DNA of 64,000 nt from Streptomyces sp. (GTDB lineage Bacteria; Actinomycetota; Actinomycetes; Streptomycetales; Streptomycetaceae): assembly GCF_036566765.1 (NCBI RefSeq), contig NZ_DATCVQ010000709.1, forward strand, positions 7,200 to 71,199, in the 5' to 3' direction. The position numbers were made by a program, and so were the translations under genes. Position 1 is the stretch's first letter. Each line of letters starts with the position of its first letter. The notes beneath the pieces were generated by a model. That model was not told the origin of the DNA, did no database searches, and saw nothing but the letters and a program-made list of their open reading frames with translations. Positions 3,773-22,533 of this stretch are shown here, piece after piece.

Positions 3773-4741
3773 TCACACAATCACACGCAGTGCACGGCGT
3801 ACGCCTGTGAACGTCACGCTCGTACGCAGACCGAGGTGGTCTCCGTCCATCTGGAGGGGGAGGGGAACCTTCGAATGCAAGGTGAAGTCGGTCAGATCGT
3901 GCAGAGTCAGCGCATGCTTGCCATGCGGTCCGCGCTCGGGCGTCGAAGTGAGCAGTTGAGTCGCGTACCGGGCCACCGCGGGGGCCGAGAGCCGGCTCAG
4001 TCCGAGCACGTCGAGGGCCGTCTCGAAGGACGCCTCCGGAGACGCGTACACCGGGCGATTGCCCAGGTAGGTCCAGGGGGAGGTGTTGCAGATTATCGAC
4101 AGGACCAGACCCTCGACGGGGGCCTCGCCCGGGCGCTCCACGGTGATCGTGCCGTGCCGCCGGTGCGGCTCCTCCAGGTACTGGCGGAACACCTGGCGCA
4201 GATAGAGCGCATGGGTGGATCGCTTTCCGCGTTCGCGCTGCTGTTCGACACGGCCGATCACGCTCGCGTCGAACCCCAAGCCGGCGCAGAAGGTGAACCA
4301 GCGGGCCGGCACCGCCTCGTCGTCCGTGCCCGGGGTCCCGGACGCGAGCCCGAGGCTCACTGTCCGTGTACGGCGCTCACGCACCGCGTCCAGCAGGGCC
4401 CCCGTCGCCTCGACCGCGTCGTTCGGCAGGCCGAGGGCGCGTGCGAAGACGTTCGTCGAACCGCCCGGGACCACGGCGAGGCCGGGCAGCCGTTCCGGAT
4501 CCGGCCCGTCGTGCAGGAGCCCGTTGACCACCTCGTTGACCGTGCCGTCGCCGCCGAGTGCCACGACCAGGTCGATCTCCCCGCCCTCGGCGGCCTGCCG
4601 AGCCAGGTCGCGGGCGTGCCCGCGGTACTCGGTGGTCACCGCCTCCAGCTTCATCTCGCTGGCCAGCGCGCGGCTCAGGACGTCACGGGTGCGCGCACTG
4701 GTGGTGGTGGCTGCCGGATTGACCACGAGAAGTGCGCGCAT
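3773..4741 (-). CDS. Diacylglycerol kinase-family lipid kinase
   Basis: LVVNPAA, GGDGTVNEVVNG, PGGSTNVFAR and QMDGD motifs. Confidence 0.9.
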   Translation of the reverse strand: MRALLVVNPAATTTSARTRDVLSRALASEMKLEAVTTEYRGHARDLARQAAEGGEIDLVVALGGDGTVNEVVNGLLHDGPDPERLPGLAVVPGGSTNVFARALGLPNDAVEATGALLDAVRERRTRTVSLGLASGTPGTDDEAVPARWFTFCAGLGFDASVIGRVEQQRERGKRSTHALYLRQVFRQYLEEPHRRHGTITVERPGEAPVEGLVLSIICNTSPWTYLGNRPVYASPEASFETALDVLGLSRLSAPAVARYATQLLTSTPERGPHGKHALTLHDLTDFTLHSKVPLPLQMDGDHLGLRTSVTFTGVRRALRVIV

Positions 4742-16063: not shown

Positions 16064-16537
16064 ATGACCGACCCAGCCCCCCGAGTGCGCCACGCCCGCC
16101 CCGCCGACCTGCCCCGCGTGGCCGAACTCGCCGCCGAGCACGCCGCGTACGAGAAGGCGACCCCACCGTCCCCCGGCCTCGCCGCCCGCCTCGACCGCCT
16201 GCTCTTCGGCCCCCACCCGCCCCGGCTGCGCTGCCTGGTCGCCGAACTCCCCGACGGGAGCCTCGCGGGCTACGCCACCTGCGCCCCCGAACTCTCCACC
16301 TGGGACGGCGTGGAGTACCTCCACATGGACTGCCTCTACCTCTCCGCCGCCCACCGCGGCCTGGGCCTCGGCCCCCTCCTGATGGCCGCCGTCGAGGCAG
16401 AGGCCCGCACCCTGGGCCTCGCGGAGGTCCAGTGGCAGACCCCGACGTGGAACGAGGGCGCGATCCGCTTCTACGACCGCCTGGGCGCCCACGCGAAGCA
16501 GAAGCTCCGCTACTCCCTGCCGGTGTCCCCGGCCTGA
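16064..16537 (+). CDS. GNAT family N-acetyltransferase
   Basis: YLHMDCLYLSAAHRGLGLG (motif A), NEGAIRFYDRLG. Confidence 0.9.
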   Translation: MTDPAPRVRHARPADLPRVAELAAEHAAYEKATPPSPGLAARLDRLLFGPHPPRLRCLVAELPDGSLAGYATCAPELSTWDGVEYLHMDCLYLSAAHRGLGLGPLLMAAVEAEARTLGLAEVQWQTPTWNEGAIRFYDRLGAHAKQKLRYSLPVSPA

Positions 16538-16559
16538 GGCCGAGCCCCCGGACACGACG

Positions 16560-16592
16560 AACGGCCCGCCGGTCAGGTGCCGGCGGGCCGTT
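16560..16592. terminator. Hairpin terminator: ancestral terminator between the GNAT gene and sodN, now ~5.5 kb from sodN
   Basis: AACGGCCCGCCGG-tcaggtg-CCGGCGGGCCGTT, about 20 nt from the displaced sodN 3' remnant. Confidence 0.7.
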
Positions 16593-16611
16593 CGCGAGGA
16601 GGTGAGGAAGG

Positions 16612-16630
16612 TCAGGCCTTCTTCGTCTCC
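16612..16630 (-). repeat. att site: displaced original sodN 3' end (GGAGACGAAGAAGGCCTGA, E-T-K-K-A-stop)
   Basis: Matches 22138-22156 at 18 of 19 nt; followed by the ancestral terminator. Confidence 0.88.
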
Positions 16631-16790
16631 TAGTAATGGGGCGGGTCGGTGACCTGTGGGGATCTTCCCTGCGGGTCGCTGGCCTGGCCTTTTACCGATG
16701 GTTGGAGATGGGGTGCGTCGGTCCTGATCGGATGCCCTGCGGACTGTGCGCGGACTGACCAGCCAAACAGCACCAGGCAGCAATGCTGGG

Positions 16791-16994
16791 TCAGCGCCTC
16801 GCGGCCATCAACGTCATCGTGATGTTGCAGGCAAGAGCCAGAGTCGTCCCGAACGCTGCGGCCGCCCGAAAGCCAGTCGCCGGGTGAGTGGCCTCGTCTC
16901 GACGTGCCAGAAGTGCAGCAGCAGCCGCGACGAGGCCGGCAAGCAGCACGGCCACAGCGCAACCCAGGGCAACGGTAATGGCATGGTCAGACAC
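16791..16994 (-). CDS. Small two-TM membrane protein (island cargo)
   Basis: GTG with AGGAG RBS; VSDHAITVALGCAVAVLLAGLVAAAAALLARRD...; divergent from the HTH-NTPase gene. Confidence 0.55.
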   Translation of the reverse strand: MSDHAITVALGCAVAVLLAGLVAAAAALLARRDEATHPATGFRAAAAFGTTLALACNITMTLMAARR

Positions 16995-17113
16995 GATCGT
17001 CTCCTGTCGATGGGGCAATCTGTGACGCCGAGTCTCAGGAAGCGGTCGTTCGCCGTTGTTCGTGGCGGTAGAACTGGTCGAAGACGAACGGGGCCGAGCA
17101 TCGAAGGGTAGGA

Positions 17114-19660
17114 GTGGCCTTGGAAGAGGGTGCCGTGTCCGAAGTGGCTCTTGAGGAGCTTCGCACCCTCTTGGAGTGCGGGCTGGTAGAGCAAGGTGTG
17201 ACGAAGACGGCCCTGGCACGACGTGCCGGGCTGGGACGCACGGCGGTGAGCGAAGCGTTCAATAGAGCCGCTTCGGTTCCATCCGCGAGAGTTGTCGGGG
17301 AACTGGGCCGGGCGCTCCGACTTGATGTGCCGGCACTTTTGGAACTTCGAGCTGCAGCTGCTGGAATTCGCCGTGCGGCCTTAGCGCGAGATGCCGTTAC
17401 ACCGTCACCTGGCATCGGCCTTCCTATTGCGCACTTTGACCCACACGACCTGGAAGTTCATCCCGCCATTGACGTGGCTTTCGATGGGGATTCTGGGGCC
17501 GGAGCGCAGCGCCGCCGACTACCTCAGTATGTGCGTCGTCAGCATGATCGAGAACTGGACCAAGTTGTCGAGGATGCGATCGAAGGCCATAGCGGTATGA
17601 CTGTTCTCGTCGGGCCGTCCTCGACGGGAAAGACACGCGCTTGTTGGGAGGCGATTCAGCCTTTGGCCTCCTTGGGGTGGCATCTCTGGCACCCTCTTGG
17701 ACCAACGCGAGCCGAGGCCGTGCTGAGCGATCTACAGCATGTAGGGCCACACACCGTGGTGTGGCTCAACGAAGCTCAACATTACTTTGACTTAAGCCGA
17801 GATATTGCGGAGCAGGTTGCTGCTTCCTTTCGCGCTCTCCTCGCCGACCGACAGACTCAACCTGTGCTGGTGCTGGGAACGTTGTGGAACGAATACGCTA
17901 CTACTTATACGGCTCTTCCCTCGCCAATCAGCAAGGATCTTTACCCGCAAGTTAGGGAGTTGCTTGCAGGTCGATTACTTATGGTCCCCGAGCGTTTTGA
18001 CGCGCCGGCCCTCCGAGAGGCCCGGATATTGGCAATTGAGGGTGATCGTCAGCTCTCCCATGCGCTGAAGTATTCAAAGGAAGGCCTTCTCGCTCAGTAT
18101 CTCGCGGGCGCCCCTGCCTTGCTTGAGCGGTATCGGATGGCTAGTCCCCCTGTGCGGGCGTTGATCCAATGCGTCATGGACGCGCGACGCTTTGGTGTCG
18201 GGAGCAATGTGCCCGTAGATTTTATTTCCCATGCCGTCGAGGATTACCTGACGGATGGCGAATATGCGGCACTCAGTGGGGATTGGTTAGCTGAATCATT
18301 TCGCGAAGCCGGGAGGTCGGTCCACGGGAACTTGGCGCCTCTCACTACAATCCGTCACCGTAAATCATCTCCTCCTGATGGAGGTACCCCTGAAGCCAGG
18401 GTTAGGTTGGCTGACTCGCTGGAGCAATTTGGGCGGGTTGACCGGAGTCCGTATTGCCCACCTCAATCTTTTTGGTCGGCGGCTTGCGAGCTACTGGAAT
18501 CTGCTGAGGTGCTTGCGAAGCTTGCTGAAGCTGCCATTGATCGGCACAGGCTCTATTGGGCCCGCCGCTTAACCGAGCGGGTTGTGGAGCGGCGGGTTGA
18601 TGCCTCCGTGTTGACTGAGTTGGCACACGCCTGGGTTGAGAGCGACCCAGGCGAAGCTGAACGTCTATTTCTGAAATCTACTGAACTGGGTGACGCTGGT
18701 GCTATGGGTAGCCTAGGTTACCGCTGCGAGGAGCGGGGGGAATGGGAAAGGGCGAAAGAGTGGTTCCGTAGGGGTGCAGAGTCTGGTGACGGATTTTCCG
18801 CTTGCGAATTGGGTAGAATTTATTCAGAATTGGGTGACCTGGAATCATCTGAACGGTTCTACCGTAGAGCGATAGAGCTGGGCGAAACTGAATCTCTCGG
18901 GGGGCTGGCTCGCGTGCTAGTCGAAAAGGGGGGAGATATAGATGAGGCTTTGACTCTGCTCCAGCGATCGATCTGCACGATGGTGCGCCAGACTGCGCGG
19001 GTTTCGATGGTGAGTCTGGAAGATGATGCGGGTATCCAGCGGTCCGGTGTTACCCCTTGGTCGTCAAGAGGGGAATCTGCGGGCTCGGCTCGACGGATCG
19101 ATGAGGTGGGCGATGTCGGAGACTGCGCGAAGTTTTTGGAGGCCGTTACCGCTGCCGCGAATGACGGTGATGCATACGGGATGCGATGCCTCTATTATTT
19201 GTTGAGGTCGACAGATGAAGTAGCGGCTGATGAATTTCTTGCATCCGCTGCGCGGGGCGGAAATTCTTTTGCTGTGGTTGAGCTGGCTAGAGAGCTGAAG
19301 AGTCGTGGTGATTTGACTCGGGCCGAGTCTCTCTATCGGCAATCTATTGGTTCGGGTGATAATAAATCTTTGGTCGCCCTTGCTGGCTTGATGGAGGAGG
19401 CTAAAAACTTCGAAGAAGCCGAATCGCTTTATTGGCAGGCGATCGACTCGGGGGAAATTTATGCCGCGCATCGGCTTAGTCGGCTGAAAGAAGAGCGTGG
19501 GGATCGGGACGGGGCTGAAGAAGTCGCTCTCCTGGCTGCGGATGCGGGACACGGCGCTGCCGCTCGAGCTTTGTCTGAGGTGAGGGTGAGGCGTGGAGAG
19601 GATGGGGGGTTGTGGCTTTATGGCCTGAATCCTGACGGCACCCCGTCATCCAATATTTGA
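17114..19660 (+). CDS. XRE-HTH + STAND-like P-loop NTPase + Sel1/TPR repeat protein (848 aa)
   Basis: KTALARRAGLGRTAVSEAF HTH; VLVGPSSTGKT Walker A; VVWLNE Walker B-like; repeated G(D/N)xxA..L...L...G..A...Y..A Sel1 units; at least 5 TTA codons; lower GC. Confidence 0.82.
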   Translation: MALEEGAVSEVALEELRTLLECGLVEQGVTKTALARRAGLGRTAVSEAFNRAASVPSARVVGELGRALRLDVPALLELRAAAAGIRRAALARDAVTPSPGIGLPIAHFDPHDLEVHPAIDVAFDGDSGAGAQRRRLPQYVRRQHDRELDQVVEDAIEGHSGMTVLVGPSSTGKTRACWEAIQPLASLGWHLWHPLGPTRAEAVLSDLQHVGPHTVVWLNEAQHYFDLSRDIAEQVAASFRALLADRQTQPVLVLGTLWNEYATTYTALPSPISKDLYPQVRELLAGRLLMVPERFDAPALREARILAIEGDRQLSHALKYSKEGLLAQYLAGAPALLERYRMASPPVRALIQCVMDARRFGVGSNVPVDFISHAVEDYLTDGEYAALSGDWLAESFREAGRSVHGNLAPLTTIRHRKSSPPDGGTPEARVRLADSLEQFGRVDRSPYCPPQSFWSAACELLESAEVLAKLAEAAIDRHRLYWARRLTERVVERRVDASVLTELAHAWVESDPGEAERLFLKSTELGDAGAMGSLGYRCEERGEWERAKEWFRRGAESGDGFSACELGRIYSELGDLESSERFYRRAIELGETESLGGLARVLVEKGGDIDEALTLLQRSICTMVRQTARVSMVSLEDDAGIQRSGVTPWSSRGESAGSARRIDEVGDVGDCAKFLEAVTAAANDGDAYGMRCLYYLLRSTDEVAADEFLASAARGGNSFAVVELARELKSRGDLTRAESLYRQSIGSGDNKSLVALAGLMEEAKNFEEAESLYWQAIDSGEIYAAHRLSRLKEERGDRDGAEEVALLAADAGHGAAARALSEVRVRRGEDGGLWLYGLNPDGTPSSNI

Positions 19661-19914: not shown

Positions 19915-20535
19915 CTACTGTCGGAGCGAATTGTTGGTCCAGAAGGAGCGGGCCTTCTTCAGAAGCTTCTCGGCGGCGTCGCCGTACGATGCCGCACTGC
20001 TCAGAGCGGCGAAGGCTTTGTTGTAGAGGTCGAGTTCGCTCTGTTCCGTGATGTCCACGGAGGAGGAGACGAGTTCGACGTGGGCCCGGTCGCTGTCGCC
20101 GTAGATGTTGAACGCGTGGACGGGGAACAGGTCCACCCGTGCGGTGGAGGGAAGGATCCCGAGGGTGAGGGAGGCCAGGCCGAGCTCTCGCAGGAGGCGC
20201 TCGATCTGTTGTCGCATGACCTCGGGCCCGCCGATGTTCGTGTAGAGAGCCTGCTCTCCGAGGACGACGTCGTAGTGGTGCTCGCCGTCGTAGAGCACTT
20301 GCTGTCGCTGCATGCGCTTGGCGACGCCCGCCGGCACGTCGTTCGGGATGCCGAGGAAGTCGACGACCTGGCCGAGGATCACGGTGGCGTATGCCTCGGT
20401 CTGGAGCGTGCCCCAGACCATCGTGGGCACGTACGCCTTGCCTTCGCGCGTGCTCTGGTACCAGCGCACCACGTCGTCCTGAGTCGCTTCCGTACCGGTG
20501 GACAGACGATCCGTCCAGGGAACTGAACTGGTCAC
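19915..20535 (-). CDS. Stand-alone DUF5753-domain protein (no HTH)
   Basis: VWGTLQTEAYA, RMQRQQVL, VVLGEQALYTNIGGPEVMRQQIERL, ELDLYNKAFAAL match the DUF5753 pattern. Confidence 0.8.
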   Translation of the reverse strand: MTSSVPWTDRLSTGTEATQDDVVRWYQSTREGKAYVPTMVWGTLQTEAYATVILGQVVDFLGIPNDVPAGVAKRMQRQQVLYDGEHHYDVVLGEQALYTNIGGPEVMRQQIERLLRELGLASLTLGILPSTARVDLFPVHAFNIYGDSDRAHVELVSSSVDITEQSELDLYNKAFAALSSAASYGDAAEKLLKKARSFWTNNSLRQ

Positions 20536-20637: not shown

Positions 20638-20991
20638 TCAGGCCATGCGCTTCATCTCGATGGCGAGGGCTCCGAGGGCTTCCTTCTCGGGGCCGTAGAT
20701 GGTGCGGATGTTGGCGAGCTGCTGGTCGCGGGTGGCGGTCGGGTTGACGTTGGACGGGCCCTCGCTGTCGAGGAGGGCCTCGAAGTCGGGGTACTCGGTG
20801 ACTCGGAGGACTTCGACATCGCAGGTCTCGTCCGTGCCCTTGATGCGGAAGCGGATGGTGTCGCCGGCGGCGAGGTCCGCGAGGTGCGGGTACTTGACCC
20901 GCACCTCGATGGTCTTGGTGCCTGCGGCGACGAGCTCGAAGTACTGGCGGTAGAGGTTGAGCTCGCGGACGCGGGCGGTGCGGCCGGTCAT
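20638..20991 (-). CDS. ASCH domain protein
   Basis: YFELVAAGTKTIEVRV (GxKxxExR motif), GDTIRF; ATGA overlap with the upstream gene. Confidence 0.85.
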   Translation of the reverse strand: MTGRTARVRELNLYRQYFELVAAGTKTIEVRVKYPHLADLAAGDTIRFRIKGTDETCDVEVLRVTEYPDFEALLDSEGPSNVNPTATRDQQLANIRTIYGPEKEALGALAIEMKRMA

Positions 20992-21590
20992 CGGGAAGGA
21001 ACGCTCCTGGGGGACGGTGCGGTGATCAGGCGGCCGATCTCGGCAGCCGAGTACGAGCGGAAGAAGTGGCGGGGGTCGGAGAGCAGGGTCTCGGCCATGG
21101 CAAGCAGCTGGTCGGCGTACTTAGTGACGGTGCCGGGCCACTGCCGGGTGTCGAGCATCCAGGGGGCGGCTCCCTCGGGCAAGGGGGCACGGCCTTCTCG
21201 TATGAGGGATTTCGACAGCTTGGCGCCGGTGTCGGTGACGACCTGGGGGCAGAACAGGCGGGCCGGCAGCTGGGCGCGGGTGAGGCCCACGGCCTGGAGG
21301 GCCTCGTCGACGAGGTGGGAGCCGAAGACCCAGTCGCCGCCCTTGACCATGACGTGCAGGGTGCCCTGGGGGCTGGCCAGGGCGAGTTCCTTGACCAGGT
21401 TGCGGTAGAGGGTGGCCAGGTCCAGGTAGCCGCCGGCGGTGGGCGTGATGGTGGCCTCGTAGGGGCCGTGGTGGAGGCAGACGGCGGAGACCACCGCCGA
21501 CTCGGGCCCGGTGAGGCGGACCCGGGTGCGTTCGGCGTGCTTCTCCGCCCAGCCGCAGTCGGGGTGCGGGCAGGGGACTCGGACGTCGAC
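20988..21590 (-). pseudogene. 5'-truncated class I aminoacyl-tRNA synthetase-like (LysRS1-like) gene
   Basis: RVPCPHPDCG...CLHHG zinc knuckle, KGGDW, TGAKLSKS (KMSKS-like); no HIGH region or start codon; upstream sequence is antisense integrase. Confidence 0.65.
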
Positions 21591-22130
21591 TTCAAGGCCG
21601 GCGCCATCCGCGTCGAGCGGCAGCGGCTCCAGTTTGGGAAGATCGGCCCGCCGAAGACCGCCAAGTCCCGGCGTACGGTTCCGGTCGGCGATGTCGTCAC
21701 CGACGCGCTCCTCGCGCATCTTGCCGCACGTCCGTCCAGGGAGTGGCTGTTCACGATGGAGGAGGGCGAGCCGCTCAACTACCGGCGGTGGAAGACCGAA
21801 TGGAACGGGGCTCGCAAGGCGCTCCAGGCGGCCGAGAACGGGGCCGCCGAGCGGGAAGGCCGCAAGCCCGTCGAGCTGCCGCACATGGTCACCCACGACC
21901 TGCGGCACTTCTACGCCTCCGCGCTCATCGCCGGCGGAGCGAGCGTCAAGCAGGTTCAGCTGGTCCTCGGGCACGCGTCCGCCGTCATCACGCTGCGGAT
22001 CTATGCGCACTTGTGGCCCGGGGAAGAAGACCGCACCCGGGCCGTCATGGACGCCGTGCTCGGCGGCCTGCGGACCGGGTGCGGACAGCTAAACGGCCTG
22101 ACCCGCGACAGTGCAGGTCAGGCCGCCTAG
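21582..22130 (+). pseudogene. 5'-truncated tyrosine integrase (C-terminal catalytic part only)
   Basis: DVDF....IRVERQ, PKT, HDLRHFYAS, LGHAS..ITLRIYAH; lacks the first catalytic Arg box and DNA-binding domains. Confidence 0.88.
22094..22125. terminator. Element-supplied hairpin just downstream of sodN (possible replacement terminator)
   Basis: CGGCCTGACC-N12-GGTCAGGCCG, 12 nt past the sodN stop. Confidence 0.4.
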
Positions 22131-22137
22131 AGGGAGA

Positions 22138-22533
22138 TCAAGCCTTCTTCGTCTCCCAGAAGATGCGGTCGAGCTCGGCGATGAGTTCCAGCGCCTTCTC
22201 GCCCGTCTTCGGGTCGTTCGACGCCTTGGCGGCCGAGAGGGCCTTCAGGGTGTCGTTGACCAGCTGGTGGAGCTGGGGGAACTTCTCGAAGTGCGGGGGC
22301 TTGAAGTAGTCGCTCCACAGCACCGAGACGTGGTGCTTGGCGAGCTCGGCGCGCTGCTCCTTGATGATCAGGGCACGGGTGCGGAAGTCCGCGTCCTCGT
22401 TGGCCTGGTACTTCTCCTGCACGGCCTTGACCGACTCCGCCTCGATGCGGGCCTGGGCCGGGTCGTACACGCCACAGGGCAGGTCGCAGTGGGCGCTGAC
22501 CTTCACCTTGGGGGCAAACAGGCGGGAAAGCAT
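22138..22533 (-). CDS. sodN: Nickel superoxide dismutase precursor
   Basis: 14-aa leader followed by the HCDLPCGVYDPA nickel hook. Confidence 0.97.
   Translation of the reverse strand: MLSRLFAPKVKVSAHCDLPCGVYDPAQARIEAESVKAVQEKYQANEDADFRTRALIIKEQRAELAKHHVSVLWSDYFKPPHFEKFPQLHQLVNDTLKALSAAKASNDPKTGEKALELIAELDRIFWETKKA

Follow-up and report, generated by a model that had tools for sequence, protein, structure and literature searches.

A putative two-gene NLR-like sensor-regulator with a membrane-peptide partner, carried by a decayed integrative element at the 3' end of sodN in Streptomyces

The stretch of DNA studied here, called the window below, is 64,000 nucleotides of contig NZ_DATCVQ010000709.1 from Streptomyces sp. 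It holds a large gene, an open reading frame (ORF) of 848 codons (17114..19660, plus strand) whose product joins a helix-turn-helix (HTH) domain, a STAND-like ATPase and Sel1/TPR-like repeats, and a divergent small gene for a protein of 67 residues with two predicted transmembrane (TM) helices (16791..16994, minus strand). The pair lies, as intact cargo, in an integrative element that has decayed at the 3' end of sodN, and the reading that we favor, at about even odds (a probability near 0.5), is that it works as an NLR-like sensor-regulator of two genes in which a membrane peptide is the partner. What kind of system would this be? Bacterial NLR-like proteins are known as fused-effector immune sensors, such as Avs and bNACHT, or as housekeeping regulators, such as MalT and AfsR, and the present family sits between the two. 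In most members an HTH domain goes with a conserved operator and with a dedicated membrane peptide that has its own gene, and some have a TIR, caspase or nuclease domain on the same chassis. Neither the family with its WLN[ED] signature nor the partner gene or the operator is described in any paper that came up in our literature search, and no Pfam or PADLOC model is specific to the family.

The divergent gene pair and the DNA between its members

The small gene starts with GTG, which is preceded by an AGGAGA Shine-Dalgarno sequence, and encodes two hydrophobic helices with a basic loop, ARRDEATHP, that corresponds to the loop LARRDxA(T/S)YP of its relatives. The open frame on the minus strand runs on into the start of the large gene, but the true gene is the 67-codon one with the start signals just described. 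Homologues of the small gene are found upstream of the large gene, and divergent from it, in the loci of a 71%-identical homologue of the large protein (L017), of a 56%-identical homologue (L018) and of a more distant HTH subtype (L014). In related genomes, tblastn (E 1e-9 to 1e-12) showed the same arrangement in six relatives. Among the HTH-type loci that come from related genomes or hold close homologues, nine of ten have the gene.

For a broader view we used the 80 best loci among genomes that each represent a species; an HTH is encoded at 77 of these loci. A hidden Markov model of the mini-protein gave 73 matches among the 11,526 six-frame segments of these loci. The mini-gene is present at 72 of the 80 loci; 71 copies have a stereotyped divergent position, with a median distance of 408 nt to the NTPase match that follows, and one is co-directional. 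The original prediction suggested that the large protein acts on this divergent membrane gene, and a link between the two is well supported by the gene order and by the conserved operator described below. The co-directional copy is at 4015-4197 of a locus labelled Microbacterium (L108), and another locus (L063) has a second copy of the mini-gene at 258-440, about 4.5 kb upstream. The best-conserved part of the mini-protein is its loop, LARRDxA(T/S)YPxALTRAA.

The spacer between the two genes is 125 bp long, and an alignment of the intergenic DNA of relatives contains one conserved block only. In the window the spacer holds an operator-like element, GTTCGccgttGTTCG-N16-CGAAgaCGAAC (17048..17089). 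Its left part, GTTCR-N5-GTTCR, occurs once in the window (17048-17062) and recurs in the equivalent spacers of relatives. The full pattern is GTTCR-N5-GTTCR ... YGAAC-N5-CGAAC, with the consensus GTTCG-N5-GT(T/G)CG - GGTCGAAGA - TGAAC-N5-CGAAC; this consensus has four half-sites, which form two pairs in inverted orientation with a spacing of 10 bp inside each pair. For the 71 loci, the tandem pattern or its complement is found 85 times in 14.2 kb of intergenic DNA versus 14 times in the remaining ~724 kb, and 62 of the 71 have it. Forward copies lie 43-69 nt from the start of the small gene and reverse copies 67-102 nt. The composite pattern matches the 8.6-Mb genome of the window at this site only; a reversed control pattern also matched once, so that the uniqueness of the site indicates the lack of a regulon and is not a measure of significance. 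The recognition-helix region of the large protein, GLGRTxVS, is nearly invariant in an alignment of 48 relatives, which fits a conserved half-site, and within the sensor-regulator reading it is likely that the HTH of the large protein binds the predicted operator.

Is the HTH the only domain found at this end of the protein? It is by far the commonest N-terminus, as the same HTH model is matched in 65 of 150 representatives and other HTH-like N-termini are found in many more. In more distant homologues the same NTPase-repeat module follows TIR_2 (E 4e-23 and 2e-16), Mrr_cat (E 5e-4, over the full profile length) and, in two proteins, Peptidase_C14. Further N-termini are a PGAP1-like alpha/beta hydrolase, Trypsin_2 with an nSTAND5 NTPase, a SARP and NB-ARC fusion, two fused TM helices, and other HTH types. 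In the TM-fused variants the TM helices occupy the N-terminal effector position and there is no other output domain. None of six non-HTH loci (one Mrr, two TIR, two caspase, one TM-fused) has the mini-gene. The original prediction looked to a survey of N-terminal effector swapping among homologues, and swapping is what the survey turned up, with HTH, TIR, caspase, Mrr-like, hydrolase and TM variants. A variable effector on a constant NTPase-repeat chassis, the hallmark by which STAND/NLR-like conflict proteins are recognized, is thus a property of this family. One caspase-type homologue (P0204; L114/L115, 2645-6369) is translationally coupled to an upstream EACC1 gene, and this coupling places that homologue in the published actinobacterial EACC1-caspase conflict system.

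We found no conserved third gene, as the 148 nearest neighbors fall into 113 Pfam families, and mobile-element neighbors (integrase, DDE transposase, GntR) are sporadic. With a paired small gene and no third partner, the module is an autonomous two-gene cassette.

Architecture, fold and distribution of the large protein

The better-placed start of the large gene is TTG at 17120, as an AGGAG sequence (17110-17114) sits 5 nt upstream of it, and this start gives a protein of 846 residues, the length of an identical database protein (P0002). From these sequence signals TTG 17120 is the likelier start codon. The original prediction described the gene as intact and, by eye, of low G+C content (GC). 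By measurement all 848 codons are open without interruption, and the GC is 0.578, with a third-position value (GC3) of 0.545, versus 0.714 for the window; along the gene it runs at 0.55-0.61, and in both flanks at 0.70-0.77. The gene contains five TTA leucine codons, at residues 90, 227, 288, 392 and 486, and there are none in the small gene or in the DUF5753 and ASCH genes of the same island. In Streptomyces, TTA codons make translation dependent on the bldA tRNA. The large sensor protein may therefore be made only late in growth.

The large protein (P0001) begins with the XRE-type HTH domain (residues 1-85; 17114..17368, plus strand, as are all its domains). A P-loop ASCE core follows (residues 141-295; 17534..17998), which contains a Walker A motif, GPSSTGKT (residues 166-173; 17609-17632), and a Walker B-like motif, VVWLNE (residues 215-220; 17756-17773). 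The next segment (residues 296-460; 17999..18493) holds a helical domain, with a GxP-like motif LAGAP, and a winged-helix domain. The Sel1/TPR-like helical repeats come in two blocks (residues 464-637 and 656-826; 18503..19591), and after them is a conserved C-terminal tail, [YF]G[LI]xPDGxP..W, which in the window reads LWLYGLNPDGTPSSNI (19595..19657). This tail caps the repeat domain across the superfamily irrespective of the N-terminal type (P0155, P0182, P0204, P0225, P0236).

The HTH of P0001 is weak when taken alone, with HTH_31 at E 1.2e-3 and 19.6 bits against a Pfam cut-off of 27, and HTH_3 likewise below threshold. In 48 relatives Pfam finds AAA_16 in 45 (E <= 0.01), HTH_31 in 41 and HTH_3 in 39; P0001 itself scores 21.1 bits with AAA_16, for which the cut-off is 32.6. 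Judged from the matches of its relatives, a five-helix structural model and the palindromic operator next to the gene, the N-terminal domain is an XRE-type HTH. No Pfam or NCBIfam match to a LuxR-type or SARP/BTAD DNA-binding domain was found in P0001, and NCBIfam gave only sub-threshold TPR families.

The Walker A signature GxxxxGK[ST] is present, and G167, S169-G172 and K173 are invariant in the 48 sequences. K173, N219 and E220 are kept in at least 90% of sequences. The canonical STAND Walker B, hhhhD[DE], is not found, as VVWLNE has Asn in place of the first Asp of that pattern. Across 262 family proteins the acidic pair reads NE in 214, ND in 25, DE in 6 and DD in 1, with Asn in 239 of the 262 and Asp in 7. 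The motif is correctly placed, as VVWLNE falls opposite VIDG, the Walker B of an nSTAND5 segment, when the two are aligned. Thus the two Walker motifs named in the original prediction exist and are conserved in the family, and the second of them is atypical. The motif definitions that we used are reportedly those of Leipe, Koonin and Aravind in 2004, for the STAND class of NTPases. Downstream, G332 of LAGAP is invariant and P334 is kept in at least 90%, and H404 and G405 of a VHG motif are invariant; by alignment and by placement in the model, these residues are in the domains expected for the GxP motif and the winged-helix His.

AlphaFold2 modeled residues 1-505, from 55 sequences, with a predicted local distance difference test score (pLDDT) of 85.4. 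The model begins with a five-helix HTH bundle (5-82), from which a flexible linker leads to a conserved segment, DPHDLEVHPA; the P-loop core, a helical domain (297-360) and a winged helix (365-432) follow in that order. The core has five strands, at 161-166, 190-192, 214-218, 251-257 and 288-290. The full-length model (pLDDT 83.4; predicted template modeling score, pTM, 0.72) adds about ten two-helix repeats, with a disordered loop between the two blocks, and the short tail. In Foldseek searches of the PDB, human SAMD9 came top (E 5e-6 to 3e-5), followed by ORC/Cdc6 (3-6e-5), Apaf-1 (4-9e-5) and the ZAR1 resistosome (5e-5), and FtsH, RuvB and NSF score similarly. The predicted fold is thus AAA+/STAND, specific to no single clade, and the expectation that the P-loop region would fold as such a nucleotide-binding (NOD), helical and winged-helix module agrees with the model. 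The "multiple Sel1/TPR units" of the original prediction need rewording. There are indeed about ten helical repeats, and TPR_10 (35.9 bits versus a cut-off of 27.5), TPR_7, TPR_12 and TPR_8 pass the Pfam cut-offs at residues 545-592, but the Sel1 model does not (17.2 versus 30.7 bits), and we call the repeats Sel1/TPR-like. Their sequence matches in the PDB are consensus TPR and Sel1-like proteins.

How widespread is the family? A phmmer search with residues 96-505 gave 2,919 representative clusters at E <= 1e-3 and 2,261 at <= 1e-10, counted at 50% identity. A word-indexed protein search gave more than 1,800 matches, nearly all of them from Streptomyces, with TPR/Sel1 or ankyrin repeats at their C-termini. 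The signature of the family is GxSSTGKT plus WLN[ED]. The genome of the window has one full copy, and a homologue is found in 15 of 61 related genomes, from which it follows that the large gene is not a vertically inherited core gene. The NTPase-repeat module is present on 97 plasmid records, 87 of them from Streptomyces. The core-gene alternative raised against the original prediction is thereby set aside in favor of a patchy and mobile gene. The 71%-identical homologue is part of a separate sodN-site island, and the 56%-identical one lies beside GntR, HD, NUDIX, DUF6284 and DUF6303 genes, a set that we take to resemble those of pSAM2-type integrative conjugative elements. The low GC (0.56-0.58) is uniform in the window's clade, over at least nine species. 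The repeats diverge fastest, with 27-34% identity to relatives versus 57-62% in the NTPase core, and identity is highest in the HTH and the NTPase core.

A possible mechanism, its rivals and known relatives

How might a two-gene sensor-regulator of this kind work? The variable Sel1/TPR-like solenoid would be the ligand-sensing part, the P-loop, helical and winged-helix unit would be a nucleotide-dependent oligomerization switch, and the N-terminal XRE-type HTH would be the output. Binding of a trigger would bring about nucleotide-dependent oligomerization, after which several HTH domains would be loaded onto the four phased half-sites of the spacer, an arrangement that suits the binding of an oligomer, as with MalT and AfsR. 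Transcription of the divergent small gene would then be switched, and probably that of the sensor gene too. The mini-protein would most likely be a membrane-acting effector, the in trans counterpart of the TIR, caspase, nuclease and TM domains that act in cis, and the expected outcome would be growth arrest or the exclusion of an invading element. An in trans effector is the simplest reading of the mini-protein because those relatives that carry a TIR, caspase, nuclease or TM segment at the position of the HTH do without the mini-gene.

Mobility, effector swapping, the EACC1 link and the fast-evolving repeats together suggest an anti-phage or anti-plasmid role, and within the two-gene sensor-regulator reading we put a conflict function at a little under even odds. 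A bolder proposal is that the pair makes up an immune module, widespread among actinomycetes, whose NLR-like STAND sensor passes its signal on by transcription and not by a fused enzyme. The Sel1/TPR solenoid would recognize the trigger, and the ATPase would oligomerize on the four-half-site operator and induce the 67-residue membrane peptide, which would arrest the infected or invaded hyphal compartment. This proposal is tentative and stands well short of even odds. If it is true, one branch of bacterial NLR immunity is coupled to transcription, and both its cis-element and its effector are defined.

A number of results weigh against the favored reading, or against parts of it. The Asn at the position of the Walker B Asp may make ATP hydrolysis slow or absent. 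The NB-ARC, NACHT and nSTAND models of Pfam do not match P0001, hhalign comparisons with nSTAND5 and NB-ARC segments taken from fusion homologues are collinear at a probability of only 13-16%, and a profile of the NTPase and winged-helix region finds nothing meaningful among PDB sequences. Given this weak link in sequence and the Asn in Walker B, we call the protein STAND-like and do not assign it to a named STAND clade. The original prediction pointed to antiphage Avs/NLR-like receptors, for which the defense database gave no backing: PADLOC, run with the large protein and two neighbors, found no family at E <= 0.1 and no match to an Avs model. PHROGs had no match for the N-terminal half of the large protein or for the mini-protein, and tblastn did not find the module in phage records. 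Neighbors of defense type (DndB, SduA, RmrA, a type IIG enzyme) are sporadic only. As to regulation, the operator sequence fits activation and repression alike, and a simple scan of 16500-17300 for sigma-70 promoters and terminators gave no match. Finally, the conserved loop of the mini-protein, which is predicted to be cytoplasmic, would also fit a docking, co-sensor or anchor role in place of that of a toxin.

Might the large protein instead be an ordinary, non-immune transcription factor of the MalT/AfsR type, whose repeats recognize a metabolite or a protein of the host and whose ATPase controls binding by the HTH, with the small protein serving in physiology or development, such as a stress response or transport? 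The prevalence of HTH N-termini speaks for this, as do the empty PADLOC search and the merely sporadic defense neighbors. STAND regulators with an N-terminal DNA-binding domain and TPRs are established in Streptomyces, AfsR being one (PMC10936776). The five TTA codons of the large gene are typical of late, bldA-dependent regulators. One would not expect such a regulator, however, to have a patchy distribution, with carriage on plasmids and islands and a clade GC that is uniformly low in several species, nor to share its module with TIR, caspase, Mrr-like and hydrolase fusions, one of them paired with EACC1. That the repeats diverge fastest, and that the sole operator in the genome is the protein's own, also speak against it, and we regard this explanation as unlikely.

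Two other explanations turn on the mini-protein. With the architecture otherwise as in the favored reading, it could be a membrane co-sensor or anchor that docks the large protein via its cytoplasmic loop, as proposed for EACC1, with the output being mainly autoregulation or targets not recognized here. The prominence of the loop in the conservation of the mini-protein would be understandable on such a view, and there is a precedent in the actinobacterial EACC1-caspase system, where a small TM partner is predicted to act as the sensor (PMC7159879) and EACC1 precedes the caspase-type homologue mentioned above. Yet the TM-fused variants have no other output domain, the genome holds no second operator, and the non-HTH variants lack the mini-gene, as expected if the HTH controls it; we consider a co-sensor improbable. 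The peptide might, on the other hand, be a toxin that is repressed by the HTH protein and is released when the cassette is lost. Such an addiction or stabilization module would explain an intact pair in a decayed island, beside a truncated integrase, and would sit well with the frequency of the module on plasmids, with its autonomy, an operator lying between the genes and no third partner, and with a divergent layout that suits repressor control. But an ATPase of 850 residues with some ten sensor repeats exceeds the needs of an antitoxin or repressor, the relatives with enzymatic effectors fused in cis cannot act as classical toxin-antitoxin pairs, and there is no sign of regulator instability. 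We think addiction quite improbable.

Returning to the two-gene sensor-regulator, how does it compare with known systems? AfsR is a SARP-NOD-TPR regulator of Streptomyces (PMC10936776), and, like AfsR and regulators of the MalT/GutR type, the window protein has a DNA-binding domain, a STAND-type ATPase switch and helical repeats in one polypeptide, from which oligomerization-dependent binding over repeated sites is expected. Unlike AfsR and MalT, its DNA-binding domain is of the XRE type, not SARP or LuxR, it has no Pfam NB-ARC or MalT-type module, and its Walker B is WLN[ED]. The gene also differs from theirs in being accessory and mobile, in having a dedicated divergent mini-gene and a single operator in place of a regulon, and in having relatives that swap the HTH for a TIR, caspase or nuclease domain. 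Avs and other bacterial NLR-like STANDs, and SAMD9 (PMC13581612, PMC12680541), share with it the order of effector, NTPase and TPR-like sensor, and SAMD9 is its best structural match; diverse N-terminal effectors, fast-diverging sensor repeats and a mobile, patchy gene are further likenesses to the Avs/NLR-like proteins. Unlike Avs, it matches no PADLOC Avs model, and its predicted output is a DNA-binding domain with a separate two-TM peptide and not a fused enzyme. The module is thus akin to AfsR/MalT in logic and to Avs/NLR in architecture and evolution, and by the tests run is a member of neither group.

In the EACC1-caspase system of actinobacteria, described in 2020 (PMC7159879), a small TM gene likewise adjoins a large multidomain gene, and a homologue of the present module, P0204, was found within such a system. 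The window, in contrast, has neither EACC1 nor caspase; its partner belongs to a different two-TM family and is divergent, not co-directional, and a conserved operator links the two genes. HTH domains in conflict systems have been noted in general terms only (PMC8195603). As the module is compact, with two genes and a 125-bp control region, its logic of trigger, switch and output is open to standard Streptomyces genetics and simple biochemistry, and it may yield a ligand-gated expression switch.

The decayed island and its other cargo

A direct repeat of 30 nt, identical at 26 of 30 positions, brackets an island of 5.5 kb (16604-16633 / 22130-22159). The repeat takes in the stop codon of sodN (22138-22533, minus strand) and the six codons before it; sodN is the gene for nickel superoxide dismutase, so identified because the homologue in L017, which is 89.5% identical in DNA, has Pfam Sod_Ni. 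By repeat search and junction alignment, the right copy, attR (22130..22159), spans the real 3' end of sodN, and the left copy, attL (16604..16633), is a pseudo-copy of that end (...ETKKA and stop). The junction alignment gives a common core, GAGATCAGGCCTTCTTSGTCTCC, of a length of only ~25-30 bp, and the left end of the island begins directly past GTCTCC. At attR, and in a relative that lacks the island, the core is followed by the body of sodN; at attL it is followed by TAGTAATGGG...GGTGACCTG, in the window and equally in L017 and G024. An attachment site in the form of a 135-170-bp segment of identity was ruled out, since the junction alignment assigns the additional homology on the upstream side of attR to the 3' end of the integrase gene.

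Next to attR is a tyrosine-integrase gene reduced to a C-terminal fragment (21579..22130, plus strand, by Pfam match), in which positions 47-168 of the 172 of the catalytic domain are kept, at about 21579-22014. The N-terminal half is missing, and the DNA upstream of the fragment is antisense to a minus-strand gene. Intact cargo in an element whose integrase is destroyed was the picture drawn in the original prediction, and it is an accurate one, with the att repeats still in place. The element is a remnant of an integrative element like the actinomycete integrative and conjugative elements (AICEs). As in the pSAM2-like AICEs, insertion is site-specific and leaves a second copy of a gene's 3' end, and a tyrosine integrase adjoins attR; in addition, relatives of the cargo adjoin GntR (KorSA-like) and NUDIX (Pif-like) genes. 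Unlike AICEs, the target is the 3' end of sodN and not a tRNA gene, no replication or transfer genes are left, and the integrase is truncated. No tRNA genes were found in the window.

The same site is occupied elsewhere. Islands with the same left-end sequence and different cargo are present at sodN in G024 (L029 3440-3770), in G014 (L030) and in L017 (7478-7575), and remnants that resemble the integrase 3' end lie beside the core in G011 (L031), G024 and L017. G011 lacks the 5.5 kb, and the remnant of this kind that it keeps next to sodN is ~110 bp long. Judged from these junctions, the 3' end of sodN is a recurrent integration hotspot, and their sequences suggest that insertion and decay happened there in repeated rounds.

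The island holds three other genes besides the pair and the integrase fragment. A DUF5753 gene (19915..20535, minus strand; Pfam and NCBIfam) encodes a C-terminal domain of the WhiJ/Sco1979 type; its product covers profile positions 109-277 of 280 of such regulators and is thus without their N-terminal HTH. The island in L017 carries a full WhiJ-like set instead, with an HTH_3 protein, HATPase_c_2 and a DUF5949 protein. An ASCH-domain gene (20638..20991, minus strand, by Pfam match) is preceded upstream by a gene for about 200 residues with a KLSKS motif (20988..21600, minus strand), which is head-on to the integrase fragment. The ASCH protein matches a phage family, phrog_19935 (E 2e-44). A linear plasmid of Streptomyces (L112, NZ_CP108988.1, 7001-11623) has the KLSKS and ASCH genes as a pair again, at 84% identity. 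On the plasmid an integrase-like sequence faces the pair, as it does in the window, and a type ISP restriction-modification enzyme comes directly after the pair.

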